Assembly (NCBI GenBank): GCA_973895155.1
Contig: OZ316899.1
Location: forward strand, 9,360,287 to 9,424,286
From: Marsupella aquatica
Lineage: Eukaryota; Plantae; Marchantiophyta
DNA: 64,000 nucleotides
Direction of reading: 5' to 3'
This document shows, one piece after another, positions 1,221 through 34,112 of the stretch (its first letter is position 1; each line of letters begins with the position of its first letter). Below the pieces are notes generated by a model, which worked only from the letters and a program-made list of their open reading frames with translations, was not told the origin of the DNA and ran no database searches. The position numbers and the translations under genes were made by a program.

Positions 1221-2289
1221 TGTAGTATGACACTAGGGATATAAATAAACATTTAAGATCCAAAACTCGATATTCATTCCCATGGAAGAACATGTAAGGA
1301 ATGATTTTCTATGATTTAGCACTTTTGAATGAATAAGATAACAAAAACACAAGGTTGAGCCTTTTACTATGGTTGCTCAGCAAGGCATAGTTTTGAATGT
1401 TTGCTTAACATTGTAAATAAAATAACAAAATGGAAATAATTAACAAAACACAATGAAAATCTTGAGGTATGGTGAGGGAGTTAGGAAACAACCAAGGTGA
1501 CTCCTCAACATAACTTCATTTGATATGATTTAGGTGGTATATCCGTAAGAAACATTTTTGGAAAGGATTACGGTACTAGGATGATCACTAAAATGCCGTC
1601 AACATGTCTCAACTTTTCCTTCCAAGGTACTAAGTGGAGACTAGTAATCAATCACTTCTGTATCCAATCGGTACTTTGTGTCACGAATAAGAGACACTAT
1701 CATCATCAAATTTGAAGTCATAAGTTATTGGAAATTCATTCAGACTTGAAAGGGGAAGAATTCCTTTGTATTAAGTACTCATATGCAATGGAGTGCTTGT
1801 TACAAATGGAGGTAACAAAGTTACAATCTTACAACTAAGGGCTCATGAAATTTCTTCACACAAGAAATGACATGAGAACTACTACTTATATGCTAGCAGG
1901 AACCAAAGGAAAAAGAGATAATGAAAGGACATGTCCTTTCTTATCTCAAGGATCATGGGTAAAAGTAAAGTAACAAAATTGTACTACAGAAGTGCTTATG
2001 GTTCACATGAATACTTTTGGAATGTAAAACTAACTAAAAAATATTTCAAATGTTAACTACTGTAAAAGTGGAATTGTGGCAAAACTAATAAATAGGGGTT
2101 ATGTCCTAATTTTAGTTTCTAAATTAAAAGTCATAAAAATGTGAGACTTTATTGAAGTGGTCTCTGATGTATATTCTTCATGTTAGCAAAATATGAGACT
2201 TTTTTGAGGTGCCTAAGTGTCTCAATAAAATAAGTGAAAGTGTTAAAAAGATTACAGAAAATGAAAACCGGAAAGTTTTCTCAGTGCTA

Positions 2290-2350
2290 GGCGCATTCGC
2301 GCATAAGCGCATAGGCACATAAGCGCATTAGCGCTTCATGTCTAAGCGGA
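2290..2350. repeat. GCGCATAAG-type motif cluster (also 5087-5150 and 5280-5330)
   Basis: gcgcataagcgcataggcacataagcgcattagcgc and variants on both sides of the ORF. Confidence 0.8.
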
Positions 2351-2519
2351 AAACAGTAAAACTAAAATATTCTTAACTTTCAAATCACATGTTGGTTTGA
2401 GTTGAGATTTTCAGGGTAGGTTTTACTAAGTAAGGACTATCTATTGGAAAAGTATGAGACTTTTCTAACTACTTAAGCTATTTAACTAAAATTGCAGAGA
2501 TCGGCTGGTCTTTACTATT

Positions 2520-5014
2520 GTCATAGGAGAACTAATCTTGTTGGAGTAGTGTTGTCTGATCTGGTTACTGAACTCTTGTGAAAGTATTTGTTTGCATAGC
2601 TTCTCGAATTACATCCATGTCTTGAGCGTGATGTCGATAAAAAGGTAAAGACTTTCACTGTCGTTCAAGATCCAGAACAGGAAGTAGCCTCCAATGTAAC
2701 ATGGTATTTACCTTGCTAGCTTGCATGTAAATACCAATGAAGTCGGAAGTGCAGCAAGTAGCATGGTAGTTTTGAGCAAACTTGGCCATGAATATCTTAG
2801 AGTCTCTGGCAAGTGGTAGAAGTAAAGTGACTCTAGGTAGGAGTTCACGCCACTTCAGAGTATACTCTGTTAATCATTGAGAAGTAATATTATCCCAGAT
2901 CCTCTCCTTCTCAGTGATTGGAGTAACAAATTGTTGGAGGACAATAGGTTGTACTGGAGAAGCTTCGTGATTCATCTGGAATCTCCTCTTGGATTGTCTT
3001 AAGAAGACAACGATGAACTCCAGGACATAAGCAGGTAGATTCCCAAAATGAGCTAGAGCCAGATCTCCATTCTCCAATACAATGTGTCCAACGAGGATCA
3101 TGACAGCAAGAACAGGGCAAAAATACTCAGCTTCCGTCTAGATCTCATCTATTTCTGCTATCTCCAAGCGAGTGACCTCTAACAAATGAAGTTTCAAGAT
3201 ATAAAGGCATTCAACTCTCTTCTTATGGTAATATTTCCAGAACTCTAAAATAGGAGGAGATCTAAGGTCTGAGACTCTAACAAACTCAACAAACTGTTTA
3301 ATATTTTCCTGAGGGGTTTTTGGATCAATATGCAGGGTAGGGATAAAATTGACTTGGCATGCTTTGTCTTGACTGGGTGGAAGAGTGTCAGGGAAAGAAA
3401 TGGCAAGATGTTCACCTGCAGGAGTGATCTCAGGTTCTGGAAAACTAGGAAAAAGTTGGTTTGGTTGATTTGAAGGACTATAAGGAGAGGTAGGTGAATG
3501 GCTAGAAGGAGGGCTAGAATAATAAATGGGAGAATCTGATGTTGAGGTATGATAGCGAACTGCAGAATAGACTTGCTAGGTGTTGCAACCGAACATCTGA
3601 GTGAACCTGTGGACGAGATCTTCACAGTATTCCAAGTGCTGGTCATGGCTTGAAATATGTGACAATCTATACATAACCTCATCTAATACCTCGATCAAAT
3701 GATCAGGATCACACTCCAACATCTTGCATATCTCATCTACAAGATTAAAGTAATACTCAGCTGAATGTCAGGGTGAAGTGTCCACAATTTGTTGAAGATC
3801 TGTCCCAGTGGTGGTAATCTCTCATCTATTGGGGATCCCATAATAGTGTCGGGATTCCAGATGTCTGTCAGAGAAAGGTGATCTGTAGTCCCAAGGGCTT
3901 CTGGTTGTCCTTTAGTGGATGGATAATTTGGTTGGATAGGACTCTGTGTTGGTGAATAAATGGAAGTGGGACTGTATGGAGTGATACAGTTATAAGCTAG
4001 TGATGGTTGAGTAATAGAAGCAGTCCTTAATCTATCTACAATAGTGAGGATTTCTTATGGATCACAAGTCAACATTCTAGACAAACTATCTACTATATCC
4101 TGGTTAAAAACAGTCTTCCCATCATCAATCAATTTCTTTGGATGATTATGTTCACTGGCAGGAATAACAGGAAGAGGAGTGTGGTCGGTCGGACTACTAT
4201 TGGTATGGTAAAGTGTAATCTCAATATTAGGATTAATATCCCCATCCATAAGTTCTGGGGCAGGTGACATAATTTCCTGGTGACCAGTTTCTGATGTTTT
4301 CTCCATTCTCAGATCATCGGGTCTTGAATCAGTCTCTGAGTGTTCCACATCTAATTCCTCCAATAGTGCAATCATTTTGACCTTTTCCTGTGGGAGTAAA
4401 CAATCCCCATACCAGTAGAGCTGACTGAGGTAAACTAGGAGGTGTGTAGGCCTTCCATTCTGTACAACATTGATTTGATTGAGGATGGTGTGTCTTAGTA
4501 ACAATCCCCAATTAACTTCAGCAAGTCCTTTCCATGAAGTAACAAACATTTTCGCCAAGGATATAGGTACCATATATGGTCGAGTGGGATGAAAAATTGG
4601 TACCAGAAACTCAAGGATGATCTTGAAGGTATAATCAATACATTGATTAAGCTTCCATCCCGCTTTTGAATTTCTCATTCCAGCAAACATCGGATCGGAC
4701 AGAGTACTCTTTCCAGATTGTAAACCACAGCCTTTTGAGGGACAACTAAAAGCGTCAGCAATGAACTCTAAGTCCCACTTCTCGGGATCTGCCCTTACAG
4801 TATCCTGAAATTCTTCGGGTATCTGTGATCCATCCGCAAACTCGCGCAAATAGGTTGGGCATATAGAAGCCCACAGAATAGATAGAAGTTTTCCCAGGTG
4901 TATAACTTCTAGAGCATCAGTCAATAACATCAAATCCCTCTTGAGTGCAGGGTACTTCACAGGTACAGCTCTAGGAATGGGGAAGTCGCAACTCATCTCA
5001 TCCACGCCCGCCAT
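2520..5014 (-). pseudogene. LTR-internal ORF: N-terminal plant-mobile-domain-like region plus conserved unknown C-terminal domain; stops and at least one frameshift (3' end approximate)
   Basis: ORF 4055-5014 (IADAFSCPSKG..KAGWKL..VNWGLL) and 2560-3360 (EFWKYYHKK..YFCPVLAVMIL..LAHFGNLPAY..KERIWDN) align by eye with 16581-19001. Confidence 0.75.
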
Positions 5015-5526
5015 GGCAAGTTGTAGCTATGGTTCTTAAAGTTTGTTTCACTATCGCCACATAAATCTAAGTTGCAAAACATCAGGGCGTATTGGCGTGA
5101 TCGCGTATAAGCATATAAGCGCCATAGCGCATAAGCGTCTCTACGTATGAGTGTATGGTCATCGAGACGTTTGGTATCAAAACAGGGAAGTGGAAGTGTT
5201 TGTCGCGAGCAGGTGGTCTAGTAAGTCGCTCTCTCCCTCCTCGTTGTCAACGGCTACTTTCAGTTACCGGTAGGGTGGGCTGCATATAAGCGTCTGAGCA
5301 CATAAGCGTCTATGCGTCTGAGCGCATTAGTTGCTATTGTGACTCCCAATTTGACATGGCTTTAAAAGTAACTAATTTTAGTAGACTATAGGGATGTACT
5401 TGAGGATGGCTTAGCTACTCTAATGCTCCTAGTTAATATAAATAACCTGAGTTGAATCACTACTTATCTTGAAAAGTTAAAAAATTTCAAGTTTTCTCAG
5501 TAATCCTGAATAACTGCTATCTTACA

Positions 5527-5761
5527 GGCAAGAAACACATTATCTTGGAAAAACAATCCATGATTGTTAAGATGGAGTTACTGCCGTGGGACTCAGGTAA
5601 CCCAATAATGAAATCCATGGAGATGGACTCCCATGGAGCTGCGGCTACTGTAAAGGTTGCAAAAGTCCTCCTTTTGCCCTATAGACCATTCGGTTCTTTT
5701 GATACAAGTAACAACTTTGCACGTGGCAAAGGACCAATTGCTTCATGTCCGGCCAATACAT
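5527..5761 (-). pseudogene. N-terminal part of the same Ty3/gypsy integrase
   Basis: YWPDMKQ..CYLYQKN..GLLQPL..WESISMDFIIGLPES..DCFSK on the minus strand; cut at 5762 by the next element. Confidence 0.85.
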
Positions 5762-6630
5762 TGTGACACGGGTAACATGTCACTTAACAAAACACAAGTC
5801 CTAGGTTAGGACTTATACGGTCATTAGGACCGTAGCCGTAGCGTAGAGTAGTACGAATAGCCGTCTTTGCCATTATGAATAGATTAGGAGTAGGTTAGTT
5901 ACAAATTAAGGGAAGGAAATTATTATGATCGACCGAGGTACGGTGGTGGCGGCGGAGTAAAAATCCGTTAGGAGATCACGCTTGGACCGAGACACCCAAC
6001 TTCGAGCCATTATCAATGACTAAACGGCCTCGCCTTCTCACACTCAAGCTCACCCTGAGTCGCGGGACTCAACTACCTTAACACCTAGCTCCGGCATCGC
6101 TGACTCCAACGCCGAGCTCCCTTATGGTCCAGGCCCGGATAGGCCATTCGGGGAGGACTTAGCATGGGGAGACTTGTGGGCAATGAGACGTGGCACTGGC
6201 GAGGCAAGGGGCCAATTTGAGGACACAAACTAAGGACTTGGACTAGCCTATGGCTGGTTGGGTCAAGGGGAAATGGGCCGGACTCAAGGATGGCCGTCCG
6301 AACCGTCGAATGGGCTTTGAGTTCTGAGGGCTTGGGAGTGAGCTCCTCTTGGGAGTTGACGCCATTGGTAACAAACGCTTGGGGCGCAAGTTGTGGCCCG
6401 ATCCGGGTTGGGCAGGTCGGGGGCCCCAAGCGGCGATCAGACCTGAAGGCCTATGCATGAGCACTGGGTCGGCCTGGTCACAACGGGCTAAGGCACTCCG
6501 CTTGTGGATGCCTATCAAGAAAGTTATGGGCGTTGCTAGTTGGTGGCGCGCCAATTATGCGCGATGGGATCCGGGTTGGGGGCCAAATGTTTAGGGACCA
6601 AAGCTGGTCCGTGGGTGGCTAGGTCCACCA
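5762..6630 (+). repeat. 5' LTR (~870 bp) of a chromovirus-type Ty3/gypsy element
   Basis: Starts TGTGACAC where integrase homology stops; ends ..CCACCA four bases before a PBS. Confidence 0.75.
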
Positions 6631-6634
6631 CTTG

Positions 6635-6646
6635 TGGTATCAGAGC
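6635..6646 (+). other. Primer binding site, tRNA-iMet
   Basis: TGGTATCAGAGC, the canonical plant iMet PBS. Confidence 0.92.
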
Positions 6647-6778
6647 GATTGCCAGCATAGACACCGGGACGGGGTCGTGCTAAGTCGGAATCCAAAAATC
6701 TTAACGGATTTTTGCGGGGACTTAGTGCTTCAACGTACTTGGCGGGTCGACTGAGCGGCAGATTTGGTCGCTGGGAAC

Positions 6779-9700
6779 ATGGCAAAAAATACTCGTGCAA
6801 AGAGTGGCAAGCAGGCTCCCCCCACCAAGGGGAGAGCCCAAGTTCACGATGAACAGAAGGAGGACGGGTTGACTTCCCTAGACGAACGTTACAAGCAAGA
6901 TGAAGAAGACGCAACAGACGAACCATCGACCGCTGCGACAAACAAGTCAAGTGCAGAGCGCCGTCAACGTAAAGGGAAGGAGGCGGCTGATCCTTCAGAG
7001 GATGGGTCGGATGACGACGACTCCGACGCAACCGCAAGCGACGACAACACTGAAGTTGAGACAGAGGAAGAGGGTCAGGACCCGGAAGAGGAACTGATCC
7101 CAGCCTTGAGAGGGTTGGATGCAGAACCAGAGGATGATGCCAAGCCGGACATCATCATGGATAATTTGACCAAGCAGAACCAGGATGACGCGGGTGATAC
7201 CTCAGTCCTGGGAGGTCATGGTGCTCGCAAGACGCGGGGGGTGTCACCAAAATCCACAAGAGAACCTAAGGACAGGCGGCCCGCAAAGGAAAGACGGTTG
7301 GAGGACCGTCCTCATACAACCCGTAAGGCCATTGACGACGGTCTGGGTCCGTTGACTCAAGACCAACGACTCATCTATGAGCAGTTGGAACACAACAAGG
7401 GGGCCCAGATTAAGTACTTACTTAGTCTGGGTAGTCAGAGTGCGTCGTGTCCCGAGGGGGGAATGGTAATTGGACGTAGTATGTTCCAAGTGAACCAGCT
7501 ACCGACTCCTCCAACTTACGACGGGGCCTACAAAAAAAGTGGACAAAAGTTCCTGAGTTGGCTCTCCACGATGGAGATTCATCTCCAAGCGTGCGTTGAG
7601 CGTTCCACTTGGGCTACCGCAGCCGCTCCTTACCTGAAGGACTATGCCTTGACTTGGTACAAGTCATGGAAGAAGTCGCGATAGGACTCCTCCTTGCCAT
7701 TAACTTGGGAAAACCTGGTTGAGGGTCTCCGTGCTCATGTCACCACTAAGTACCCGGAGCGGCACGCTCAAAAATCCGTAACAGAGATGAGTTTCAGGGG
7801 TGATATCCAAAAGTTCATCACTTATTACCAGAATCAGTTGACGTGTATCCCGGCGGGACAAGAGACCCTACATACACAACTTCACAACTTTATCGTGAAG
7901 CTCCCGCCGTTGCTCAAGGAAAAGTTGCAGAAAAAGCATCATGAGTTCAAAACACTTTTTGACGCCTTCGACAAGGCCACTACGTTGGTGAATAACCGAC
8001 CGGACTTGGCAAAGGTGGGTGGCAAGCAATCCAAGGGGGAAGCTGGGAATAAGGTCCCGGGAATAAGCATAAGCAACCTCAGGGGGCGGGGGCCGGTGGT
8101 TCGGATCCCCAGCCCTAGAATGGGGAAGCTACGCAAAACCGGAAGGCCGACAACTTTTAAGAAAGGAGCCTCATCGGCACAAAAAGCAAAGAAGCAGGCA
8201 ACCATGGAGCAGAGGCGGGCTGAAGGTTCATGCTTCACATGTGGTGCCATGGGCCATCAAACTAAGGATTGTTCCACAAAAGGTGGCAAAGCAAACGGAG
8301 ATGGTGGAGGGCAGAAGAGCATTAAGGTAAGTATTGCTCTAACCAAACCCTTAGTAGCTGACAAGGTCCCTATAGGGGATGTCCCCGACGGAGAGAGGGT
8401 GTTGTTGCGAGAGAAGATACCTAAAGTTAAGACAATGGATCCTGAAAAACTGATTTTTGTGAACGTCACTTCTAACGGTAATCTGGGTGTTGCTTTGGTC
8501 GATACAGGCGCGACCGCCTGCTTCATAAGTGGGCAGACGGCAACTCGTCTTGGGGTGGACGTGCAAGAGTTGTTACAACCGTTAGTGTGCAAGTTTGCCA
8601 ACGACACAAAGGGGATAGTGTCGAGAGTAGTGCATAGACTTTGGGTAGAGGTCATAGGCGAACAACAAAATTTTGTTAGTCAGGAGATGTTCTACATTCT
8701 AGACGGTCTAGCCATAGACTTCATTTTGTCGGTAGGTTATCTCAGAAAGCACAATGTTACCTTGAACCGAGGGGTGAGGTGCTCCATTTTCCCAATAAGG
8801 GCGGTGAGCCCATCGTTGTACACGAAATTACCGAAAATAAAGAAAGATTTCTTAAAGTAAGTAAAGTGTCGTGGATGTCTCCGTGTGTATCGGCGAAGCA
8901 ATGGTGGAAAGACTTCAAAGGTGGACATGAATGTTTCTTCTTTCATCTCCACCCAACTAAGGAGGCTGTGTTGCAGCCAAAGGTCAAGTCAGCTAAGGTC
9001 GGGCCCGACTGCGGTCGAATTCCCAAAATTTTAGAGGAATTCAACGACGTGCTCTTGCAGAAGCTACCTAAAGGTTTACCCCCGCGGAGAGAAGTGGATC
9101 ACCAAGTTGAGTTGGAGCCGGGATCGGCTCCTCAGGCTAAAGCTCCTTATCGTCTGAACTTGAACGAGAAAATGATGTTGAAGAACGCCTTGGAAGAGTT
9201 GATCGATCAAGGGTTCATTCGCCCTAGTAAGAGTCCTTACAGGGCGCCCACGCTGTTTGTGTCCAAAAAGGATGGTACTTTGAGATTGTGCGCAGATTAC
9301 CGGGCTCTCAATAAGCAGACGGTAAAGAACAAGTACCCGTTACCTCATATGGATGACCTCTTTGATTGCCTCTCTGGGGCGAAGAAGTTTTCAAAGGTGG
9401 ACTTGCGGTCTGGGTATTACCAAATCCGCATGGCTAAGGGAGACGAGTGTAAGACCGCAATGCGCACAAGGTTCGGATCCTATGAGTTTTTGGTTATGCC
9501 GTTTGGGTTGTGTAATGCAACCACAACGTTCATGAAGATGATGAATACCATCTTTCATGACTTGTTGGACCAAGGAGTGGTCGTCTTTATTGACGACATC
9601 CTAATCTACTTGAAAACGTTGGAGGAGCATGAGCAGTTGCTCAAAGAAGTGTTCTCTCACCTTCGTAAGGCTCGTCTCTTTGCTAAACCTAGCAAGTGCA

Positions 9701-10442
9701 AGTTTGCGATGAACGAGATTCAGTTCCTCGGCCATACCTTTACCCTAGAAGGGATTACGCCTAGTCAGGACAAGCTTAAGGAGATCAAAGAATGGGAGCG
9801 CCCGTCCAATGTAAGGCAAGTTAGAGCCTTCTTAGGATTTACGGGGTTCTATCGGAGATACATGAAAGACAATGCAAGGATTGCGAGGATTGCGAGGCCC
9901 CTCAATGCGCTAACGTTGAAAAACAAAGTGTTTGTGTGGACATAGGATTGCGAGTTAGCATTCCTAGAACTTAAGCGGTTAATGATAACGCCGCCGGTTC
10001 TAAAGTTACCTGAGATGGGGAAGCCGTTCAAGATTTGGACAGACGCAAGCGATTATGTCATCGGCGCCTGTCTTCACCAAGATGGGCGTCCTGTGGCCTT
10101 CGAGTCATGTAAGTTGGAAAATCACTGGATCACGCCGGAAAGGGAAATGTATGTTGTGATCTACGCGTTGAAGAAGTGGAGATTTACCTTAAGAACGGTC
10201 CCAAAGTGGTAATCCACACAAACAGCTCGCTGCCAAGGCTGAACCCCAAGGAAATGCGCTGGCAATTGTTCTTGGCGGATTTTGATTTTGAAGTCCGCCA
10301 CGTTCCAGGGAAGAAAATTACGGCAGCGGACGCGTTATCGCGTAAGGACCAACATCGTATCAATGGGATCACGATGCTCAAATCCGAGTGGCCAAAGGTT
10401 TTGGCCGCAGCGTATGGGGATGACAGGTTAGCTTGGGGTTAG
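6779..10442 (+). pseudogene. Ty3/gypsy gag-protease-RT-RNase H, disrupted, truncated before integrase
   Basis: CCHC CFTCGAMGHQTKDC, protease ALVDTGA, RT LRLCADYRALN / DLRSGYYQI / FIDDIL, RNase H TDASDYVIGACL..ADALSR. Stops at 7684 and 9945 plus frameshifts. Confidence 0.93.
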
Positions 10443-10444
10443 CT

Positions 10445-11381
10445 GAAGCAATTTAAATCCATGGCTTGACCAAGGATTTGACAACGTGAATTCTTCGACA
10501 CCGAGGCCATTGTTGTGGTGTTGGTCAAAAATCCTATAGCTTGCTCTCTCTCATTAGAAAGTAGGCTCTACTAGGTGTTATAGAGCTATATCCCACACGA
10601 GTCCAGGGCCACCTGCCCAAAATGCGTATGAAGCAGAATGACTCACAAAAGTGGGTAATGCACAACGTGGACGCCCAACTACATTCACCACTACTAATGG
10701 CGGTCGGTCAGATTGGGTAACACTTTGTGCACGACGCCCTGGATCCAAAATATCATCCACCACTAAGGTTGTTGAGCAAGTAATACCATCAAATGCTCGC
10801 TTTAACACCTCACATGGTAACAAATTAGTCCACCACAAGCGTGGACAATGTGAACGAGAACCCACATGTGCAACATCCAATAGCACAGCAGGTCCAATCC
10901 AAGATTGAACCTGATGAACACTAGCAACAATTTGATGACGATCATCACCCAATAGTGGCAGATTCTCTTAAATGTATGTAAGAGAATGTGTCTAATGCAT
11001 TTGGAGATGGTGCAACACATGTAACATCTCCCAAAATAGTGCAGAACTTGGATCATGAAATCCATGTCCAATTCCAGCCCGAGATTGACCCTGACATGGC
11101 CAACTCACAATCACCAAATCAATGGGGCCAACACGATCCAAATGATCTACCCCCAATAATGAAATATCAATCGGCAATGCATGCTGATAACCACGAACAA
11201 CATCCACGGGCAACAACTGTGGATAACATTTCACCAACATCGCTACATGACGTAGTGAGATCCTCCATGTTATCTCATCATTTTCCACATACAAGTAACG
11301 ACGCACAGGAATTCCTGCTTGAAGAACAATAGCCAATCCAGTGCTAATCCCATCAAATAAATCCAACAAACAAATACCCTC
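10445..11381 (-). pseudogene. DNMT3-like C5-cytosine DNA methyltransferase domain
   Basis: Motif I LLDLFDGISTG, IV SWPCQGQSRAG, VI ENL, VIII HCPRLWWTNL, IX EREQAIGF, X RCQILGQAMD in canonical order. Several stops and a frameshift near 10555. Confidence 0.9.
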
Positions 11382-11699
11382 CTATGGATACTGCCACGCA
11401 ATAGGAGTGGTATCCAATGGTGAAAGGGTCACCGGTCCATCTGCAAAAGATTGTTGTGCTCCTAACTCCGGTGTGAAAGCATGACGCCATGCATCATGTA
11501 TCAATTGGGCCGCATTTTGTTGCAAGGCCTCTCCAGTACCCCATACTGGTGCCACAATAGTATCAACAAGTAATACACTCATCATGTGTTCCTCACGTGG
11601 CTCCTCCATTGTCGGAACATCTGCTGCATGTGACCTTCAATCAAATCATCAAATCCAGTCATCAAACTACTGAATGCTGCCAAAGACAATGGTGCAGAT

Positions 11700-12344
11700 T
11701 TAGGACCTCCCACGTCCACTAAATTGCACTGGCAATCGGCTCAATCGAGCATCTCCAGATCGCCAATCGGGTCGATATGACACCGACTCATCCCAAAAAT
11801 CAAGAACAAATCCCATAGGATAAAGTACTGTACATCCCACTAACGCATCATATGACTCAGCCTTAGTCAAAATAGCTTGAGCCTGGATCCGTGAGTTATC
11901 TTTTGGATGATCCTCTTGAATCCTAAGTTCAAGTGCCCATCTGGTGATATGTTGTTTGGGTGTAGGTCCTCCCAATGAAGTCTGAATGGGAAAGGGACAC
12001 TCCTCCAAATCATCTTGACGCAATCCTAATCCTTGTATCGCAGACTTACCCAACATCAAGGGCTGAGCACTAGTATCCAATAACACTCGTTCTGGCTGGT
12101 ATATCGCTCCAAAAGGCCCAACTAATCGGAAGATACCACTCCGATTATCCAATGATACCACACTAGGTTTAAACCTAGTTCTCTCAAAGGCAGGGCATGC
12201 TGGTAACTCCATCAACCTCGTCGCTTTTGCTTGCCATGTTTCACCACTAGCAATAGGTGGAATCAACTCCACAACTTCATAATCATGCTGCATTGTCTCT
12301 ACATGAGAAGTAATAACTTGAGTGTCTTCACATAATGTGGGGGT
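11700..12344 (-). pseudogene. Retroviral-like aspartic protease
   Basis: RVLLDTSAQPLMLG..IQTSLGG..SYDALVG..LYPMGFVLD. Confidence 0.75.
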
Positions 12345-12664
12345 ATTTACAAACGACAGGAAACAACAAACAGTAACAGAAAATAGAAATTGGTAACAGG
12401 AAAATGAGTGGTGATTTTTTTTGAATTTTTTTTTTAATTTTTTGAGTTTTTTCTTTTTCAAAATTTTATTTTTTTGGCTAGCGCCCGACGCTGGTAATGC
12501 TAGCGCCCAAAGCTAGCCAAAAAATGTTGTAACTTAGATTTTTTTGGAAAATGAGACTTTTTAGAAAATATTTTGACATGGTTATTTTTCCTGGTAACAG
12601 TAACTTTTTGCTGGTAACAGGAAAATTTTTCCTGGTACCAGTAAACCTGTTTCTTGTTTACTGT
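12345..12664. mobile_element. Unclassified 320-bp AT-rich insertion
   Basis: Interrupts the gag-protease frame cleanly; repeated GGTAACAG motif; internal inverted repeat TTTTTTGGCTAGC..GCTAGCCAAAAAA (~12470-12523). Confidence 0.6.
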
Positions 12665-15600
12665 CACGCGTGCCATACCCCATAATGTGGCCGCCAATCT
12701 GAACACTTCAGCTGGACTAACTCCCAATGCCAACATATCTGTTGCTGAAAATAATGGGGTGCACACAATGTTTGTGGCCGCCCCCAGCAAGGTACTTGCC
12801 ATCCCTGCTACAACATCATCTGAATCTACCAACTTATCCACACTTGGATTTATCTGAACCAGATTCATAGAGGTAGTTTGAGCTGCCTCTAACAATGTAA
12901 ACAATTGGGGAAGCTTTGTTTGTCGATGAGCCTCCCCCCTTTGAGGATCCAGCTCTACCATTGCTCCTCGGGGCTCAAGGGCTTTGGTTTCTCCTCGAAT
13001 CAAAAATGCCGATGCATCAACATGGGCAGTGCCACACATGAATCCCATGGTGGCCAAGTCTCCGTCAGCTCCATAAGATGTAGAAGCTCCATCACCAGAA
13101 GTAGGTCTAACCTAAGAACTGGCCATGGCAACTAGTTGTTGCTCCAATTGAGCAATCTTTGCATCCTTTGGATCTATGATAGTGGCAGGAGCATCACCTT
13201 GTTGTCTCCCTGCATGTGGCATGTGGAATGGCTTGATATAGATTTATGTAAAAAACTTGTTTTTGCTTTTTGAACAAGGAATAGTAAGAAAGACGTTTTA
13301 GTGTTAGCAAAGTATTTAGAGTTTGCAACCCTAAGTAACTAGGGAAGGCTAGTAGGAAATAATGTAAGGGAGAAGATATGATGTTTCAAGAAAGTTTCAA
13401 GGGATAACTAAGGTCTTTATGGTAGGGCAGCAAATGTTCCATCCTTAGTTAGAATAGGCGACTAAATTGGGCCGGAAAATGACCTGACACTTGAAGTCTT
13501 AGTTTTTGTTAAAGATTTTTCCTATAGGTGCTAGGAGGTTTTTAGAGCACCCTTGTGAAGTATGACGTCAAGTGGGGTCTCAACCTAGGGTTTCCTTGTG
13601 TTTTGGAGGGACTTAAATTAACAAAATAGCGAGTCTCGGGAAAAATAGCTGATGGAAAAGGTAGGGGTTCCAAGTTGGAAAGTAGGTTAAATATGGTCCA
13701 CTCTATCCCTGGAAACTTGTGGGAGAACATGGTTACCTTTGGTTATTTTTTGGGGCGATCCAAATTTTTTGGAAAACATAAGAATTAACCCTCTTTATGT
13801 CTAGAAAATTTGTAGATCTACTTAGAAGTCATTTTGGACTCATGTGTGATTTTTTGGGGCGATCCAAAACGGCCTGGAAATAGTGTTTTTCCAACAACAA
13901 AATCCAAAAAAATTCTAAGTGTCAACCGCATCGGCGGCAACCACGACTTAAGCACGAGGCCGGGGAGACTCAAGCACAAGGTCAGGAACACCATAAGGGT
14001 CAATACATAAGATGCTTGCTTCAAATTGGGATCAAGAGGCAGCTACAAAATTGAATTGAGCTGGTATAGCTTCAGGCATGGGATGCTGATCAGAATTGGC
14101 TGCCTGCCTCGATGCTGCTGATTGGAATAGAGCTGCTTGCTATGGAGAGATAGGCTGCTGCTGATCAAGAGATGACTGGCTGGCTGTGAGCTATGGTGGG
14201 CTACGAAATTGAAGGGTTGGCAGCTGATTAGACTGACTGCTGCACCAGAATTAGAAGAGCTAGTTTCAAGCATGAGATGTTGAGTGTGGGCTGATTAGTA
14301 AGTATGTTGCAAGCTCAATAGTGTTGCTGCTCTGCTAGCTATGAAGTTGAGAAGGGTGAGCTATGGCTGGCTGCTGGAGAATAGAGCTAGACTACTAGCA
14401 AATTGATTGAATGTAGTAGCAAAAGGACCAGCTACAAGGAAGAAATTAAGAGGGCTAGCTGCGAATTGGTGGGCTATGGCTGCTGCAAAATTCTGCTGCA
14501 ATTTTGAATCACTTGCAAGGATGGATGGCTATGGAGGTGGACTGAGAAGGCTGCTGCAAACCTGGTTGAACTGTTGATTGACCTGCTGCCATTTGAATCC
14601 AACAGAGAATGTTGTCGTTTCAAATTGAATTCAAGAGAGAGGAAAATGGCTGCGAAAATTGATGTCCTTATCAAATTCTTCATAAGAAACGTGAGTATAA
14701 TGAGAGTACTCTCCCCTGGTGACACCTGGAATCTCCATAAGGGGCGTGTAAAGAGTAAGTGTAATCGGGTCGCTGCTTACACCAGCTTTACACCAAAAAC
14801 AAGCCTTGGGAGAATGGGCATAACTTTGGCTAGGGGTATCCGTTGGGGCCCAATTGTTTTTGTGCTGAGTTAGGGGAAGGTAAGGCACCCCTTGGTGAAG
14901 TTGTAAACCCAGAAAAAGAACCACCCAAATGTATTTTTAGCCGAGGCCGCGAGGGGTCCCGATAGCTTGCAAACCGGAGCCGACATAGCGGAATGAACAC
15001 CAGATTTAAGGACTGACTTTTCTCGCACCCATACCACTTTAGTTAGGCTCTAGGGAAGGGTACTTACCTTTGGTCAAAGTTGTAAGGCCATCAAATTAAG
15101 AGATGTAAGTATAGGGGGTAGTTTACTTAGGGTAGTAAAAGGGTTACAAGTAAAATAAGGCCAACTTTGACTAGGCATAACTTGAGACTCACTCACTCTT
15201 TTTGCAAGCTTTCAAGTGGGTTGGAAAGCTGGTGAGGAGGACCATAAGCGAGAGCAGGTTTGGAGGTCAAAGGATACAACTCATGTGTGGCATATTCCAG
15301 GGCTTGGAAGGAGGCAAAATATCAAGTAGTAGGTGTAGTTTGCTATGAAGAACCAAAAATACATTTAAAGGTCTCCAAACTCGGTATTCGTTCCCGTAAT
15401 GAACAAGATGGGGTTGGTTTGATAATTTTAAACAACAATAATAGACTTAAGATGTTTTCCACACATAGTAATCAGGTTTGATTACTTTACTAAGGTATTT
15501 TGAAGATAGCTCCACAGCGGTGAGTAGTTTTTAATGGTAACTCGGCATTGTATAAACATAAATTAATAAAAGGAAATGATTAACAAAACACAAGGGAAAA

Positions 15601-16247
15601 TATCTTAAAATATTCTAATGGAGTCTGGAATTGACCAAGGTTGCTTCTTAGACATAAGTCAAAATGAAAAGACTTAAGGATTCAAATCCATATTGCTTTT
15701 CAGATCTAATGTGCTTACTAGAGTACTCTTTTAAAGTGTCGTCAACACGTCTTGTCTTTTCTTTCTAAGTGGTACTCAGACAAGATCTAAAAGGGTGAGT
15801 ACTTCAACATTTAGATGGTACTAAGCAACATGAAAAAAAATCCATCAATTTCAATAAGACTTCAAACTCAATGAGTTAACTTCAAGAACTTAGGAAATTG
15901 CAATGAGTCACCAAAGAGAAATCTGTCATTACAACATCCAAAGATTTTGCACAAATAGATTTTACTTCCCGTGTTTATAAACAAAGGTACAAACACAAGA
16001 AGGAGGTAAGACTCTCCTGTTGCTAAATCTGATCTTGAACTCATAGATTCATGATCAATGGGTTTAACACAAGGAAGAGGCAAAAATGCATAACTTAACC
16101 ATAACTACACTAGTGGTAGAGGGGTCTTATAGTAAGAATCTACAAAGTGAAAGGTCATAGGGTTGAAGAGACATGCCTCTTCATACCCCTCAAAAAGTTA
16201 AAATGGCGATTCAGTAAGTGAAAAGCCGGAAAACTGGCTAAGTATGA

Positions 16248-16372
16248 ACTCGTAAACTAGTAAAAACGTAAAGTCGTAAAGACACTAACTCGTAATCGTC
16301 TATCTATCAGAAACTCGTAAGTAATAAACTAGTAACTCGTAAAAGCTTAAGTCATAACTCATAACTCGTAAT
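16248..16372. repeat. ACTCGTAA/ACTAGTAA motif cluster (second cluster 19187-19272)
   Basis: Many copies of aactcgtaa / aactagtaa on either side of the ORF. Confidence 0.85.
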
Positions 16373-16580
16373 TGCGATACAACTAAAAACTTATCAAATT
16401 CAACTATTTTTTACTTCCTAAGTATAAGTCAGAAAACTCTGAGATTTTGCCAGCAGGCTTTCCTAAGTACAGACTATATGCTGAAAAGGTATGACAGCTT
16501 TTAAAGCTTTAGAACACATTTATAAAAATCAGATGAGATGTACTACTCCTAAAACTAACTAGAAATGCCTAGACTCTGCC

Positions 16581-19001
16581 TTAGTCTTGTTGTTGAATGT
16601 CATGTGGTTTGAGAAGCTTCACAAATGTAACAGTCCCTGACTGGGTAACCTCCATGAGTTCGGCTTGACGTGGTGATCCTCGAGAATAGGGCAGGCATCT
16701 TAGTTGTCTCTCAGGATACATCAGAGGCATTCTCTTCATTAAGTAGCATGAATCTATACGAAGTGCCTCTCGGTAAATGCCAATCACATCATAGTGATTA
16801 CAGGTAGCAGTGTAAACCTGAGGATAGTGAGATAGGAAATCTTCGGTCCTCATCATTCTAGAATAGAAAGGACGAAGTCTCCAAGTAACATCCTTAAAGT
16901 ACCGGTTGAACTTGGCTAGGGTTTGAGTGGTGACATTATTCCATATTCTCTGTTTCTCGGCTAAAGTGCTAGTCGAGACCAACTCAACCTTTGGTTCCTG
17001 AGGGATGTAGTTGTTCTAACAAGAAGTGGTCTTCTTACTTTGCATGAGAAAGGAAATCACAAAGTCCAAGGCATAGGCTGCAAAATTTCCAAAGTATGCC
17101 AAGACTAAGTCAGGATCCTCCACTTCTACATCACCTTGTAGCAGCATTACAGCCAGTATGGGTCGGAAGTAAACAGAGTCGGTCCAAAACTCATCAAACT
17201 GTGCCATCTCCACTCTAGAAGCACTATGAGACCTAAGATCAAAAATGTAGCTTGCCTCAGTTTTCTTCAGGTAACAGTATCTCCAGAATTCTCCAACTGG
17301 CGGCTTGTTAGCATCCATTATTTTACAAGTGTCCACATACCTCTGTAGTTGGGATTCAGGAAGTCTGGGGTACCTTCTCTCAATGGTAGCATTCCTGGGA
17401 GTCTGAGTAGAGGATGTGACAACTGCCACTAGGTTTGGGTTCGATCTTAGAGCTACATCAACATCCTCAAATCCCTGCCTTGGTGAAGACTCAAGTGAGT
17501 TATCATAAGATCGATAAGTTTCATTATATGAAGGCGGGTCAAAGTCATAAGAGAGGTCCCGGCTAACAGAAGGATCTTTAGGTTGTGCCCGAGTAAAGAT
17601 AGGTCCATCAGTGGGTTCATAATTGGAATCAGGACTATAGGGACAAGGATCTGGATTATGAGGAATTTTAGCAACTGGGGAGTTCTTAATTAAGTTGCTA
17701 ACAACAAAGACTATCTCCTTAGGTTCACACTAGAGCATTTCCAGTAGGTCATCTACAACTGCAACATAGCTTATGTTTCCCATTTCCGAGACAGGTTCAC
17801 ACTGTTCTGTAAGGGGATTCTGTTGTGTGATAGGAGTGAGGTTAACAAATTCTTCTGGTTCCGAACCCCCTATAGGTGAAGTTACTCTGATAGGAGTCAA
17901 TTGATCTGGAAAAGGTGATGGTAAACTAACTGACTCATTTCTCAAGTCACTAACCACATTATAAAGCTCAGCATCACTACAACCAAAGAGAGAGGTTAAC
18001 TTATTGATGAGTTGCTGATTAAACTTAGCCTTCAAAAAAGTAGTCGAACTGGTCCTAAGGATGAAAGCAATAGTTGGTTTAGCAACATCTTCTTGTTGCT
18101 CAAAGAAGTCCTCGTCTTCTTCAGCTACAGGTTGTTCTCCCATGCTGACTTCTCTTGAGTACACCTGGTTATTTAGAGGATGTTGGACAAGCTCCAAGTT
18201 GTGTTCAGGCAAAGCCTCAAGACCTCCCATAGATGCATTTTCTATATCCATATCAACATTCTCATCATTGGAATTCAGGGGAATGGCATCCACTGGTTCT
18301 TCCACATCAATTTCTTCCTCAATGCCCATCTCGATCAGAAGTAACTCCCTTTTTGTTCTCTCCTCTGGATGTAGACAGTCATGAGCCTAGTAGAGTTGAG
18401 ATAAATAAACTTGCAGGTAAGTGGGTCTGTCTGCCTTCATACTTCTCACTTGATCTTTCATCACATTAAAAATCAACAATGCCCAATTCACTTGGATGAC
18501 TCCACTGTGAGCAGCTACAATAGTATTCACCAAAGCCACAGGGCAGATAGTTGGCTTTTTCGGATGAAGAATTGGTACTAAAAATTCCAGGGGGACTCTC
18601 AGATCCGGATAAGTACATTGTGTCAAATTCCAGCCATTAGTAAGATTGCGAATTCCTGAGAAGTATGGGGTAGACAAATCCTTCTTCTTTGAATACAATC
18701 CTTCTCCTTTTGAGGGGCAGCGGAAGGCATAGGCAATTTGCTCCACAGTCCATAAACTTGGTCAAGCTCTAATGGTTTGTCGGAATTCAGGAGCAATCAG
18801 TGATCCTTTCACGAAATCCTGTAAATACGAGTGAAGCTCTACATTCCAAGGAATTGAGAGTAGATGTTCTAGTCCGATCTGCTGTAATGATGTTCTTAAA
18901 TTTGCGCAACTGTTGGGCGCCTGAGGAATTTGAGCTACTACACTCTTAGGAATTTCCAAAGCGTCAACACGGTTTTGCTCATCAGTGCCCAGGTCAGCCA
19001 T
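16581..19001 (-). pseudogene. Single ~806-codon LTR-internal ORF (PMD-like N-terminus, acidic linker, unknown conserved C-terminal domain) with 4 in-frame stops
   Basis: Track ORFs starting 19001, 18746, 18329, 17429 and 16982 are all in one frame; I translated the largest gap (17430-17729) and it is open. Confidence 0.82.
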
Positions 19002-20508
19002 AGCTCTAATCTGTTCTGTCGAGTGCGCAAAGAAGTGGGGAGCTCAAGAGAGGTGATGAAGGAGGCAGGGAAGTAATCAGGAGTGAGCGCCTAAGTCCTA
19101 CATTGCCTTCCCTTCAATGCGCGCTCTTCGTCCGTTGTGGAGTTCCGTTGAACTAGCCGTAAGATGTCGCTATCACAGGGTCGCCAACTCGTAAGGCGTA
19201 ACTCGTAAACTCTTAAGTCCTAACTCGTAAACCAGTGAACTAGTAAACTAGTAAACTGAGTTTACTCGTAACTTAGGAACCCTTAACTTTGAATGTTGTT
19301 TACAGTTATAGTTAGCAACAATTGCAGTCTAAACACCATTTTTTTTAATTTAAATTCAGTTTCTTCATGCTTTTGGAATTACCCACTACTTACAGTAGGG
19401 TGGGCTATGAACTATAGAGTTGGACTTTGTGTGTTAAGAGTCCGACTTGGGGGAAGTATAGTTGGACCCCAGGTTAAGCTTGGTGTAGTGTGGAAGGAGA
19501 ATAGTATAAAAGGAGGAGTTTTCCTTTGTTAGGGACCGGGAGTCTCATCTCTTAAGTGGAATCTCTACCTTGCCAAGGTAGGGCTAAGCTTGAGAACTCA
19601 AGGGAGAGGTGGTCCATGCTTAGTGTGGAGAATGTGTAGTAAACTTTTGCTGTAAAGATGATGCAATAAAAGGAGACTGGTGGAAAGCATGATTGAGGGG
19701 TAGATAAAAAGGATCTTCAAAGTCTCCACCAAAAGGAGTGAGTCCTCATGATTTTTGCAATAAATTGGGGGGTGTTACACTCAAGGGCCAAGATGTAGAA
19801 GGACCAAATCAAAGGCTGGATTTGAATATCAATCAAAAATATATTCATTTGGACCGGTTGAAGTACAGCCTATGCGTAATTCCTATCTTGGACTTTAGCA
19901 AGGACGACGTATAAATGTTCTCCTTGGATCCCGTGACATTGAATAGAGCAAGTTGCTGCTCGCAGTGTGTTTGAATACAAGGACTCATAGTCGATGCTTT
20001 TGAAAACAAGGACTAAAGTGGGCAAGGACTCATAGTCGATGTTTGAAATTGATCGTGGATTTTGTTCTAAGCACAAGTTAGACTTGAATTGTCTTGGGAC
20101 GGGCAAGCACCAACAGCAAAGGGCTTAGGGGTTAGGGATGGCTATGGTGGTCAATTACTTATTGAAGGAGCTTGCGCCATACACACGCAATGTGAGAGCT
20201 GAGTTGTTGGGGATGGGGCATAGTTGGATAGTTGAAGCTTTGGATCGGGAGTTGATAATTCATCATGGAAGTTTGATTTACAGCAATGCATCTTGGAGAT
20301 TGCCCATAGGAGGAGCACTGTGATTGAAGCGTTGGTGGACCTCGGGCGATTGTTGAGCTTTGCCATGGTGCTTGCAGGATCAAATGGGTAGGCAATTTTA
20401 GAAGTATTGGCCTAGTATCAGGTAGAATCTGAATCCTCAAATGCTTCGCATCCCGCTTTCAATACCTCCCAAGTTTTGTCTAGTACTTGATGCGGTGCTT
20501 GACATTGA

Positions 20509-23235: not shown

Positions 23236-26200
23236 TGTGGTGCGTCCCATGGCTCCCTAAACCCAAGAAACCCCCCAGCTCAAGCCGATTCCCGCAGGTT
23301 TCGCGCTTGGCGAGGCCGTTTCCACGGCTTAGCGGCATGGGACGCTGCTAACCTTCTACTACTACTATTAACATTTTACACACATATACTGGACAGATCC
23401 TTCATCGGGTCATGAGATACGTAGCCGGCCTAATATAGGCCTTCCCCTGTCTTCCCCTGTCTTCCCCTCCGTCTCGTTAGGTATGTTTGGATTCCGCCGC
23501 CGGAATGATCCCCAATAGGCTTGGTTAAGCCGCTAAGACCTCTCTCAGCTCGACACATCCAACTCTCACTCCCCTGCTTACTTTCCTTCGTTCTGTTGAT
23601 GTGGGCACTCTTCACACAAGTTAATGCGACACACAAATAGCAAAATGACTCATTCTGACTGAGTCATACCATGCACTTGCCATACAAACAGTACATCTCA
23701 TACACAAGTTCTGCGAACTAAGCCGTGAGGCCAACTCTATTCAGCTCTTAGGCATGAGGAAACATGAATATACACAAGGGTCACTGTATGACTAACCGAG
23801 AGCTTCTCGTACTACTTGATCCCAGCCCGGCTGGTGCAAACTAAAAACTTGCTAAAGAAGAGGCCCTGAGCTCCCCGCTGCCCAGGTACTTATCCTGGTA
23901 GTGGATCCGCCATTCTTTGCATCGTAAGCCTAATCTACTTAACAGTAATCTACTTGCCCGAATCTACCTATGTACAGCAAGGCAGGAGCACAAGTGTTGC
24001 TCCTACCAGTGGGACCGCAATCCCACTAAGCTAAGTGTCAGGGCCGCTCCTGGTTCTGATCCTAATCCTAAACGTGGAGATCCGTGCCCGCCCTGCCCAC
24101 TCACGCCTCCTCCCTCCACGTCCGCCCTCCCTAAAAGGAACGGCGCCCTTGCACCGTCACGACACCGGTGGTGGATCCTCAATGGACGCCCCCAACACTT
24201 CCTCCGCAGCCACTGCCGTTGGCCCGCCTACTGACAGATTACCTGCCCTTGACCGAGTCAACTCTCCCTCGGCCTGACTGGGTCCACCTTCGGCTTCAGC
24301 CTCGACACCGGCCTCGGCAATACCCACGGCTTCAGCCTCAGCCACTCTCACGGCTTCGGCTTCAGCCACTCCCTCGGCTTCGGCTTCCCCTTCCCCTAGG
24401 GTAGTTGGATCCTTAGCCGTGACCCTGTCTGGGGTCGGTGCTGGGTCTACCTCCTTGATCACCACGGCCTGTGAAGTCGTATTACTCCTTGACCCTGAAG
24501 GTTTCCGCTTCTTCTTCGTTGGTGGCTCGGCAGCTGGTCCCTTCCCCTTCCCACTTAATTCCGGCACTGGTGCAGGTGGCGCGGCTTGTCCTTCGGCAAT
24601 TACCACCCCTGGTAACTGGTTTGTCCCAATAGGAGATGGACCTGCTGCAGCTAAGCATTTAAATACTGCGGCTTGTTTCTTCAGCCGCTCTGTTTGGTTG
24701 TCGGCCCGCCGCTGTAGGTTCTCCATCTTCCTCGTGATTTCCTCCAACTCCTCTTGGGTTTCATCCAGGTCCTTACGTGCCCCCTCCAGCTCGTTTTTGG
24801 CCTCCTCCTGCTCCCTGTGGGCTTCCTCCAATTCCTTCTTCAAGGTAGCCCTCTCCTCCTGGGTTGTTCTTAGCTCCTTGTCGAGCTCTGCAATGATGAC
24901 AGACTCCATCTGGTTCATCTTGGCGTAAGTCTGTTCGAGCATCTCGTCCTTCTCCCTTAGGTCGGCCTTGAAGCTGGCCGTCAGGGACGCAAGCTCCTGC
25001 TGCAGCGCCATAATCCCTTGATAGGATTTCCCTAACTCGACCTCCTTCTGCTCAAGGGCTCCGCGGATTTTCTCGAGCTCCCCTTTCAACGCCCATTCCT
25101 TTCTTTGGGTCTCCGCCATGGCCCGGCTGTTGGCTGTTATGTGGGCCTCCTCTGTATTCTTCAGCTCTTGCTTCCACTTTTCCCTTTCTTTGATCGTGTC
25201 GGCCAACTCTTCCTGCGTCTGAGTCAGTTTATCCTTGATATTCTGATTATCAGCCTGCGCGGCGTCCAACTGCCCCTGCATGATGTTCAGCTCATGTCGT
25301 TTAATCCGCAGTTCATCTTGGGCTTTCTTGGCCGCCCTTAGATCTTCAATCTCGGCTTCCATCCTCCTAAGCCGCCGAATGACCTCGTCCTTCTTGCTTC
25401 TCTCTAAAGCCACCGCTTCTTCTAATTGGTGCTTCTCCAACTGCTCCCTATGGAAAAAGGGTCCTACCTCCAACTCCTCTCCAAAGATGCCGAGCGCAAG
25501 TTCCCCACACATCTCACCATACTCCATGGCTCTATTCTTAGCGTAGGTGGAGTAAGTAGAAGTGATCGGCATCGCCCATCGTGGCCTCTGCTCCCAAGCC
25601 GTCCTGCGGATCTCTTCAATCGTGGCTAGAGGTTTGCTTCCTTTTTCGGCTAGCCGCCTGATGTCCTCCGGCCAATCTCCTCCTGGTAAATCCTTTTCCT
25701 TAGCCAGGGCGGCCTCTTCCTCCTGCTTGATTCGCTCCTGAAATTCCTGCACCGTCTGTTTTATGCCGTCGAAGCTCGGGGGAGCAACATCTGGTGGGGG
25801 AGACTCAGGGCTACTCTGTTGGTTGGGGTCCCCTCGCACTACCCTTGGAAGTGTGGGGACAAACCGGCCACAGGTCCTTACTCCTGGAACGTGATGGTCC
25901 GACCCATAGCCGGAATTATCATGGCTGCAGTCCTCCACTGCCTCCTCTACCTCTTGGATTTCCGGCTTCTCCTTCTCCTCTTCCTCGGTAGGAGCTTCAG
26001 GCAATTCTGCCTCAGATTCGGAGCTTGAGGTTCCCACGTACATTCGAACACCTGGCTTGGATCCCGGCCTGATTCTCTCGTCTCCAGCAAAGGGGTTTTC
26101 TCTTGTGAGCCGGTGTAGGCCTACCTCTGTAGTAGTGTCCTGCATGGTTGCCGTTGCCGTTGTTGTTGCCGATGCCGATTTCTTTTCTTTCTCCAGTAGT

Positions 26201-27892
26201 TTCAGCAGACTCTGCATGCCTGGTTGCTGCATCGGCAAGTCTTCCTTCCTGGGCCTAAACACCTGCTCGATCGTAGGACTAACAGGTGGTTGAGGCTTCT
26301 CAGCCAACGGCCTCGGCGTTGGAGCTTCCTCGGGTGCCCTTACCTGCAGGGGAAGTACCGGGGCAAAAGTCTGACCTCTGGCATACCGGCACAACAGCGG
26401 CATGTGATAGCCAAGCCGCGACACGCTCCCCATGCCGATTACCTGCTGCTCCTCCTTTAAGATCTTCTTCAATTGGTTGAGGAGGTACCCGTTGTAGTCC
26501 CGGCTTGGGTCTGGCCTTTCTGCCAGATAGACCTGTGCCTTGCCGATCTCTGCCCTCAGCAAGTTACAATGCATGGTCACCCGCAAGAAGTCGATCATCT
26601 CTCCTATGTGCGGGTTGGTGCAGGTGTTCCGGAAGAAGCCATTCTTCGTTGATGGCCCGGGGAACGACCGGAACTCCTTGTCAGGCAAGGTCTTCCTGGT
26701 ATCAACTTTGGTCTTATTGCCCATCGGCAAGCCAAACACTTCGGCAATCACCTTGGGAGTAAGATAGAAATCCTTCCCATATATCCTCGTGCAATTGGTC
26801 TCGGGTTCCCATGACCCCACGAATTCTAATAGGTCTGACTCCGGTACCTCCGGCTTCAGCCATGGTAATCTTACAAAGGCCTCCAAGCCGGATCCGGCCA
26901 TGAAGCCTTGGTACTTCTTGGTCTGCATGGCCGTAAAGCATGCATCCTCCTCCCGTGCAAAATGTAGTTGCACCTCCACCGGTAGGGTTGCCGCCCAGCC
27001 CTTCCAGGTGTCATCCCTGGTTGGAATGGCCTTGATGGGATCGACCTCCTCCTCTTTGGCTTCTCCCTGCCTCCTGCTCTGCTGCTCGGCTGGCTTCTTT
27101 GGTGCCGTCGACCTCGTTCTTTTTGCCGGGGTGGCTTCATCGTTGACGGCTCCCTTCCTCTTCATCTCTGCTGCCGTGGAGGTTTCTCCTAGCACCGTTG
27201 CCTGGGTCCACCTTTCCGTGCTACCCTTTAATTCCCAGTGTATGTCGTTGCAGTTCTTGATGGCCTCTCGGATGCCGACGACGCTGTCCTTGCAAAACAG
27301 AAGATCGTCGAGTTGATTGGAAGTAGGTGTCCACAGGAACTCGTCCTTGATGAGTTCGCCTCCTAAGAAAGCCGTCTTCTGCAGCTCCCACAATCGAGCG
27401 AGCTCCTGCCGTTCTCGAGCTGCCCTTTCTGACTCCTCGTCCTCGTAAGTCTTGATGTACTCAGTTGCCCGTTCGAACAGGCATCCCCAGAAATGTGCCG
27501 CTTGATTGACGTTGCTCATACCCTCCTTAGGTTGATCGTCGGTATCTACTCTCTCCCCGAGTGCTTGCCTAAGCAGCTGACAGTAGTTGGCCTCCCGTAG
27601 TCGTCTGCCTAGTTCGTGCTCGCAAATGAGCCACCATCTCCTGCAAGCGCTCCTTACCCCTCTCCTCTGCCGGTCCTTCTTCCCGTTGATCCTTCCTAGC
27701 CGCCGACGCTTAACGCGCCATAACCCTAATCGGGTTTTCACCCTCAGCCTTACCTCCGGCCTCTGCCCGGGTTCCATGGTTGCCCCTAATTGTTTATATT
27801 TTCCTTGTTTTGTCACTATACTAAGGTGTTCCTAGGGTGCCTTCCTGCTTTACCCACTTAACCGGCCGAGTGATTCCTGTCTAGGCATCACA
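23236..27892 (-). repeat. 3' LTR, 4,657 bp
   Basis: Direct repeat of 34117-38773 (offset 10,881); about 11 substitutions seen by eye, all transitions. Confidence 0.96.
24157..27777 (-). CDS. LTR-encoded ~1,206-aa protein: basic N-terminus, PMD/plant-transposon-protein-like domain, long coiled coil, AE-rich tail
   Basis: Uninterrupted ORF, first ATG at 27777. GLEAFVRLPW..LLEFVGSW..IYGKDFYLTPKVIAEVFGLP motif; heptad-rich region ~aa 790-1060. Confidence 0.88.
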   Translation of the reverse strand: MEPGQRPEVRLRVKTRLGLWRVKRRRLGRINGKKDRQRRGVRSACRRWWLICEHELGRRLREANYCQLLRQALGERVDTDDQPKEGMSNVNQAAHFWGCLFERATEYIKTYEDEESERAARERQELARLWELQKTAFLGGELIKDEFLWTPTSNQLDDLLFCKDSVVGIREAIKNCNDIHWELKGSTERWTQATVLGETSTAAEMKRKGAVNDEATPAKRTRSTAPKKPAEQQSRRQGEAKEEEVDPIKAIPTRDDTWKGWAATLPVEVQLHFAREEDACFTAMQTKKYQGFMAGSGLEAFVRLPWLKPEVPESDLLEFVGSWEPETNCTRIYGKDFYLTPKVIAEVFGLPMGNKTKVDTRKTLPDKEFRSFPGPSTKNGFFRNTCTNPHIGEMIDFLRVTMHCNLLRAEIGKAQVYLAERPDPSRDYNGYLLNQLKKILKEEQQVIGMGSVSRLGYHMPLLCRYARGQTFAPVLPLQVRAPEEAPTPRPLAEKPQPPVSPTIEQVFRPRKEDLPMQQPGMQSLLKLLEKEKKSASATTTATATMQDTTTEVGLHRLTRENPFAGDERIRPGSKPGVRMYVGTSSSESEAELPEAPTEEEEKEKPEIQEVEEAVEDCSHDNSGYGSDHHVPGVRTCGRFVPTLPRVVRGDPNQQSSPESPPPDVAPPSFDGIKQTVQEFQERIKQEEEAALAKEKDLPGGDWPEDIRRLAEKGSKPLATIEEIRRTAWEQRPRWAMPITSTYSTYAKNRAMEYGEMCGELALGIFGEELEVGPFFHREQLEKHQLEEAVALERSKKDEVIRRLRRMEAEIEDLRAAKKAQDELRIKRHELNIMQGQLDAAQADNQNIKDKLTQTQEELADTIKEREKWKQELKNTEEAHITANSRAMAETQRKEWALKGELEKIRGALEQKEVELGKSYQGIMALQQELASLTASFKADLREKDEMLEQTYAKMNQMESVIIAELDKELRTTQEERATLKKELEEAHREQEEAKNELEGARKDLDETQEELEEITRKMENLQRRADNQTERLKKQAAVFKCLAAAGPSPIGTNQLPGVVIAEGQAAPPAPVPELSGKGKGPAAEPPTKKKRKPSGSRSNTTSQAVVIKEVDPAPTPDRVTAKDPTTLGEGEAEAEGVAEAEAVRVAEAEAVGIAEAGVEAEAEGGPSQAEGELTRSRAGNLSVGGPTAVAAEEVLGASIEDPPPVS

Positions 27893-34047: not shown

Positions 34048-34094
34048 TACCTACGCTTCCGTTCTAACTTCATATCTCACGGCTTAAGAAATGC

Positions 34095-34112
34095 CCCCTC
34101 CATCTAGCGCCA
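34095..34112 (-). other. Primer binding site, tRNA-Asn-like
   Basis: Minus strand TTTT-TGGCGCTAGATGGAGGGG after the 5' LTR; one mismatch to the plant tRNA-Asn(GTT) 3' end as I recall it. Confidence 0.75.

Follow-up and report, generated by a model that had tools for sequence, protein, structure and literature searches.

The stretch analysed here (hereafter the window) is 64,000 nucleotides of DNA from the liverwort Marsupella aquatica (contig OZ316899.1, positions 9,360,287 to 9,424,286), and it contains two units, U1 (1221..5526, 4,306 bp) and U2 (15334..19394, 4,061 bp), which are probably solo long terminal repeats (LTRs) of Ty3/gypsy retrotransposons, each with one long open reading frame (ORF). 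In minus-strand orientation each unit begins with TGTAAG and ends with CTACA (for U1, 5′ end at 5526 and 3′ end at 1221), so that the termini are TG..CA, and each is bordered by a perfect 5-bp target-site duplication (TSD), GGCAA at 1216-1220 and 5527-5531 for U1 and GTAGG at 15329-15333 and 19395-19399 for U2, for which the chance at fixed ends is 1/1024 per unit. The coordinates, the TGTAG..CTTACA ends and the perfect TSDs given in a first-pass annotation, made from the sequence alone, were all exact. U1 splits a gypsy integrase-like frame that resumes on both flanks, and in three of four public runs contigs connect 15327 with 19394, which gives the empty site expected of the host repeat minus U2.

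As that annotation had stated, the units lack gag and pol, since the gag, protease and pol present elsewhere in the window gave no tblastn match in either. Pfam searches of three ORF translations returned no significant match (one BrxL_N match, E 0.054, fell below the cut-off) and no transposase family in the U1/U2 proteins. Within U1 and U2 we found no inner LTR pair, primer-binding site (PBS) or polypurine tract (PPT), and no terminal inverted repeats (TIRs; scores of 16 and 24 compared to shuffle maxima of 28 and 31). Their layout is not that of large retrotransposon derivatives (LARDs) or terminal-repeat retrotransposons in miniature (TRIMs), the sole direct similarity being the motif arrays described below. 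In both units a leader of 390-510 bp precedes the single long frame on the minus strand, and the 3′ non-coding DNA extends over 1.25-1.3 kb.

The U1 ORF (2535..5014, minus strand) has ~826 codons with a frame change near 3740-3755 and six in-frame stops, and that of U2 (16581..19001, minus strand) has 806 codons in a single frame with four in-frame stops (codons 80, 205, 424 and 662). The claim of one ~800-codon ORF per unit holds, with the refinement that both ORFs lie on the minus strand and are broken. Two protein blocks are conserved despite strong DNA divergence, as had been noted: an N-terminal domain (4316..5014 in U1, where it is an open frame of 233 aa, and 18300..19001 in U2, both on the minus strand) with 43% identity over ~230 aa, and a C-terminal domain (2535..3335 in U1, ~267 aa, and 16584..17384 in U2, also on the minus strand) with 33% identity over 263 aa (E 3e-51). 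The linker between them is acidic and proline-rich. Synonymous sites are saturated between U1 and U2 (proportion of synonymous differences, pS, 0.73 and 0.78; nonsynonymous, pN, 0.41 and 0.44), and the only DNA block that the units have in common (minus strand; U1 1388..1513, U2 15525-15657; 134 columns, 72% identical) lies in the 3′ non-coding part, the presumed R/U5.

Intact 808-aa relatives of the U2 protein (P0004, P0032 and P0033) were found. P0004, the sole match among 463 candidates, belongs to a cluster of five members (three full-length, on contigs of 3.5-3.9 kb) and is 86%, 64% and 77% identical to U2 in the N domain, linker and C domain, respectively. A search of 1.84 billion representatives gave 26 relatives of the C domain (E≤0.001). 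For the N domain, three of 3,185 candidates proved related, and none of the relatives looked up for either domain was informatively named. The ~270-aa C domain, which the first-pass annotation did not recognise, was modelled confidently as all-alpha and had no family or fold match in the libraries searched.

The N-terminus had been described as like the plant mobile domain (PMD). Sequence comparison gave this no support: the Pfam profile PF10536 matched none of 14 proteins at E≤10, nor the N region of the LTR protein of group 1 (a different gypsy family in the window, see below), the U1/U2-type proteins matched none of PF10536, PF04195 and PF03078, and the N-domain protein matched neither DUF1985 nor the VANC21 chain in sequence. 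Structure did point that way, if weakly, as the only PDB match of the fold predicted for the U1 N domain was the anti-silencing protein VANC21 (9lnk). Two distant N-domain homologues, P0039 and P0040, have a coiled-coil-like tail in place of the C domain, like the group-1 protein, and because of these tails the N domain appears to take different partners. The N domains of the group-1 and U1/U2 proteins may share deep homology.

That the units are LTRs is indicated by the ORF-upstream end of U2, to which contigs of four runs were aligned. The last 40 bases (19355-19394) were deeply covered, and several contigs ended exactly at 19394, as expected where the flanks of many copies diverge. In two of the seven rows listed, X2 (a single contig) and X5 (three contigs merged into a consensus, and representing another coded organism), the element strand has a PPT-like TTGAGGAGAGGGCTA immediately ahead of TGTAAG; the other five rows showed single differing flanks or mixed consensuses beyond the terminus. 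Similarly, AGTGGGGAGCTA lies directly before TGTG both in the group-1 element and in L003, a metagenomic gypsy locus. A PPT at that position puts the ORF of the U2 family in U3, and we consider it likely that the units are solo LTRs with a gene in U3, left by LTR-LTR recombination. The earlier proposal of solo LTRs with an ORF inside is thus supported for the U2 family by the PPT-like tract in two runs, the differing other flanks and the contigs stopping at 19394, and is extended to U1, which we take to be a solo LTR from its homology to U2 and its layout. A second coding-LTR lineage, as had also been proposed, fits the lack of detectable homology between the group-1 and U1/U2 proteins (BLASTP E 0.26; hhalign 0.6%; HMM E 1.4).

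L003 came from a metagenome scan in which 265 pattern matches yielded three loci, two of them ending inside the ORF. Its 6,969 bp hold, in order, a C-domain homologue (29% aa identity; ORF stop at ~576), then a PPT, a non-coding TG..CA LTR of 1,086 bp, a PBS, gag, protease and reverse transcriptase (RT). This order may reflect a tandem or an assembly running through the repeat; in either case the gene is internal. An internal ORF in full-length relatives had been named as grounds for rejecting the LTR placement; it was found in the distant L003 only, and the placement in the window's own family is not refuted. The C domain of L003 stands beside a gypsy pol with 47% identity to that of group 1; it is thus a domain of this gypsy type, present on either side of the PPT, and the comparison shows a gene that apparently crosses the LTR boundary. 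After the ORF in U1 or U2 there was no trace of an earlier PPT, and the direction of change is unpolarised. L003 resembles group 1 in its PPT motif and pol yet has the C domain of U1 and U2, which suggests that accessory genes may be exchanged among related elements. A ~35-base motif ending in the PPT is common to L003 (575-625) and the window (27885-27925), and reads CGCG.GG.CGCTTCACA.TT.AGTGGGGAGCTA followed by TGTG.

The non-coding DNA of both units carries arrays of short minus-strand motifs. U1 has four copies of CGCTTAT upstream of the ORF (5115..5308, a CpG-retaining stretch) and two, besides degenerate copies, downstream (2303..2325), and U2 has four copies of TTACGAG upstream (19188..19271) and five downstream (16249..16371). 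All copies lie on one strand, with expected counts of 0.41 for TTACGAG and 0.25 for CGCTTAT, and neither motif occurs in the opposite unit. The observed/expected CpG ratio was 0.95-1.4 in the 250-bp bins with most array copies, compared to 0-0.6 across the ORFs, a comparison that is partly circular. Dense, same-orientation, family-specific motifs in non-coding DNA, as present in U1 and U2, are a trait of the VANC system: according to the accessible part of PMC5735166, VANC21 binds such motifs in the non-coding parts of its element, and they evolve fast with the protein. L003 has a third family-specific CG motif array, a palindrome (GAAACCGCTG...CAGCGGTTT) in four clusters (695-830, 2460-2500, 4665-4710 and 5535-5600) lying within the LTR, ahead of gag and within pol.

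Our preferred explanation, which we hold with rather more confidence than doubt, is that U1 and U2 are solo LTRs of two diverged families in one Ty3/gypsy lineage with an ~800-codon LTR gene, whose protein likely binds its own motif arrays and keeps copies transcribed. That this protein is a sequence-specific anti-silencer or trans-activator we rate at a little under an even chance. More tentatively, the lineage may have placed a VANC-like sequence-specific anti-silencing gene together with its target motifs inside the LTR, making solo LTRs self-contained regulator cassettes. The ancestral gene would have been an ordinary extra ORF between pol and PPT, as in L003, and by the simplest path would have entered U3 as priming shifted to a new PPT upstream of the ORF. 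Because U3 is upstream of the main start site, the gene would need its own promoter, presumably within the LTR's first 400-500 bp. The targets of the predicted VANC/PMD-like N domain would be the arrays in the leader and those at the main promoter, which follows the ORF; bound there, the protein would oppose silencing or activate transcription in trans. The linker is probably flexible, and recruitment of a partner or oligomerisation would fall to the helical C domain. LTR-LTR recombination would leave the whole gene-plus-target cassette, in which young solo copies would retain a complete gene; in U1 and U2 it has decayed.

Several points weigh against this explanation. The link from ORF to terminus in the U2 family is a tiling of overlapping contigs and not one molecule; the listed pieces leave ~19225-19260 uncovered, though that bin has depth; in U2 the ORF linker has far shallower coverage than either the 3′ end or the last 40 bp; and the C-domain ORF of L003 is internal, upstream of the PPT. 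The motifs were picked after inspection and are possibly host-factor sites, and VANC21, with which the U1/U2 protein has no sequence similarity, comes from VANDAL21 Mutator-like (MULE) DNA transposons of dicots.

All the structural evidence for LTRs would apply equally if the U3 gene encoded something other than an anti-silencer, such as a factor for integration targeting, for particle or RNA movement, or env-like, with the arrays being sites of host transcription factors. In keeping with this, the C domain has no known relative, the protein has one 19-residue hydrophobic stretch (P0004 residues 634-652, Kyte-Doolittle value 1.73), and the functions of additional ORFs (aORFs) in plant elements are left unresolved in the accessible part of PMC7264820. 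However, that stretch falls within the modelled helical domain, the N domain has a DNA-binding anti-silencer as its sole fold match, and motifs change from family to family along with the divergence of the proteins; we consider this alternative unlikely, if still a serious one.

Distinctly improbable, in our view, is that the units are non-autonomous but self-contained elements, or else products of deletion (an internal aORF joined to a 3′ LTR) whose termini are those of an ordinary LTR family and which are mobilised in trans. The internal position of the L003 ORF would suit it, as would the deeper coverage of the terminal 40 bp and 3′ end (ORF-less relatives may exist), and no paired copies were seen, a point with no genome-wide search behind it. 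On the other hand, a PPT abuts the ORF-upstream end, neither a PPT relic nor an inner TG start follows the ORF, there is no inner LTR pair or TIR, and two independent insertions with saturated synonymous divergence have the same layout; since this region changes fast, the 80% cut-off would likewise be expected to reduce depth in the linker. A DNA transposon or captured host gene with chance TG..CA ends could draw on the VANC-like fold known from MULE elements, but is very improbable given the 5-bp TSDs, the lack of TIRs and of a transposase family, the location of a C-domain homologue in a gypsy element (L003) and, above all, the PPT junction, which largely refutes it.

Extra ORFs (aORF/eORF), including PMD ones, are common in plant non-chromovirus Ty3/gypsy elements, whose LTRs reach ~5 kb (PMC7264820, accessible part), and where the available portions of the literature place these ORFs it is in the internal region (PMC7264820, PMC6317226, PMC11963269, PMC6431247, PMC3485330, PMC5418596). 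Like U1 and U2, the aORF systems (Athila ORF1/env-like, the Ogre PMD ORF and Retand TRP28) have an accessory gene found throughout the family and constrained at the protein level; Ogre is known to have PMD-type domains, and Retand family-specific repeats together with predicted DNA binding (accessible parts of PMC7264820, PMC6317226 and PMC11963269). L003 has their classic arrangement, with a sense ORF between the pol side and the PPT, whereas in U1 and U2 the whole gene lies between the PPT and the LTR end, and hence would be duplicated in full elements and survive in solo LTRs. A literature search of incomplete coverage, with supplements outside its scope, found no case of a whole ORF in U3 of a plant retrotransposon. 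Among retroviruses, sag of mouse mammary tumour virus (MMTV) and, partly, nef of human immunodeficiency virus (HIV) lie within U3 (PMC12789967, accessible part). MMTV sag is likewise a complete ORF inside U3, but it encodes a retroviral membrane superantigen, and homology to a two-domain retrotransposon protein of ~800 codons is not expected. The latter also differs from VANC21 in having a second domain unrelated to known families.

The role of plant gypsy extra ORFs and of retrotransposon-encoded PMD clades is described as an open question in the available parts of the literature (including PMC7264820 and PMC5418596). Here each protein is paired with a candidate target motif that changes by family (TTACGAG, CGCTTAT and the L003 palindrome), and their specificity is therefore directly testable with natural intact copies. 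With the C domain on opposite sides of the PPT, L003 and the window would form a natural record of gene entry into LTRs, and a U3 gene, present twice per element and kept by solo LTRs, would change how LTR-LTR recombination limits a family. If the more tentative reading of a VANC-like anti-silencing gene is true, solo LTRs, normally dead remains of element removal, would help their family escape silencing. The protein would then be the equivalent of VANC in a retrotransposon, with a 270-aa domain of undescribed fold fused to it, and PMD/VANC anti-silencing would appear to predate flowering plants.

The group-1 gypsy element (23236..38773, minus strand) is complete: its two LTRs (4,657 bp each, 99.76% identical) enclose gag, protease, RT, RNase H and integrase, and it has a PBS, a PPT and the TSD ATTTA. 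Each LTR has an open sense ORF for a 1,206-aa protein with a coiled coil. The group-1 LTR (4.7 kb) is thus like U1 and U2 in exceeding 4 kb, in having one long sense ORF and in its PPT junction, but differs in its protein. The group-1 pol frame terminates within the LTR, with the PPT in the last codons of pol. A diverged solo copy lies at 55770-60487 (near-TSD GAAGT/AAAGT), and from its comparison with the paired copy (pN/pS 0.29-0.38) the group-1 LTR ORF is under purifying selection. The group-1 element is inserted in one member of an inverted pair of ~5-kb elements (19675-23235 plus 38774-39789 and 48147-53273, 92-97% identical) with a broken transposase-like ORF, which had no informative Pfam match and whose motifs we take to be of DNA-transposon type. 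A decayed element at 10581-13111 (minus strand) has a C-5 cytosine methyltransferase fragment (PF00145, E 6.7e-7, 10995-11381) downstream of an ORF that resembles an aspartic protease by eye and has no Pfam match, an arrangement that presumably recalls methyltransferase-carrying retroelements. Two more decayed gypsy elements lie at 6755-10350 (plus strand) and at 847-1220 / 5527-~6000 (minus strand), the latter providing the integrase-like frame that hosts U1, and tandem arrays with 37-bp and 21-bp periods occur at 53533-53986, 45758-46203, 39027-39541 and 48365-48887.
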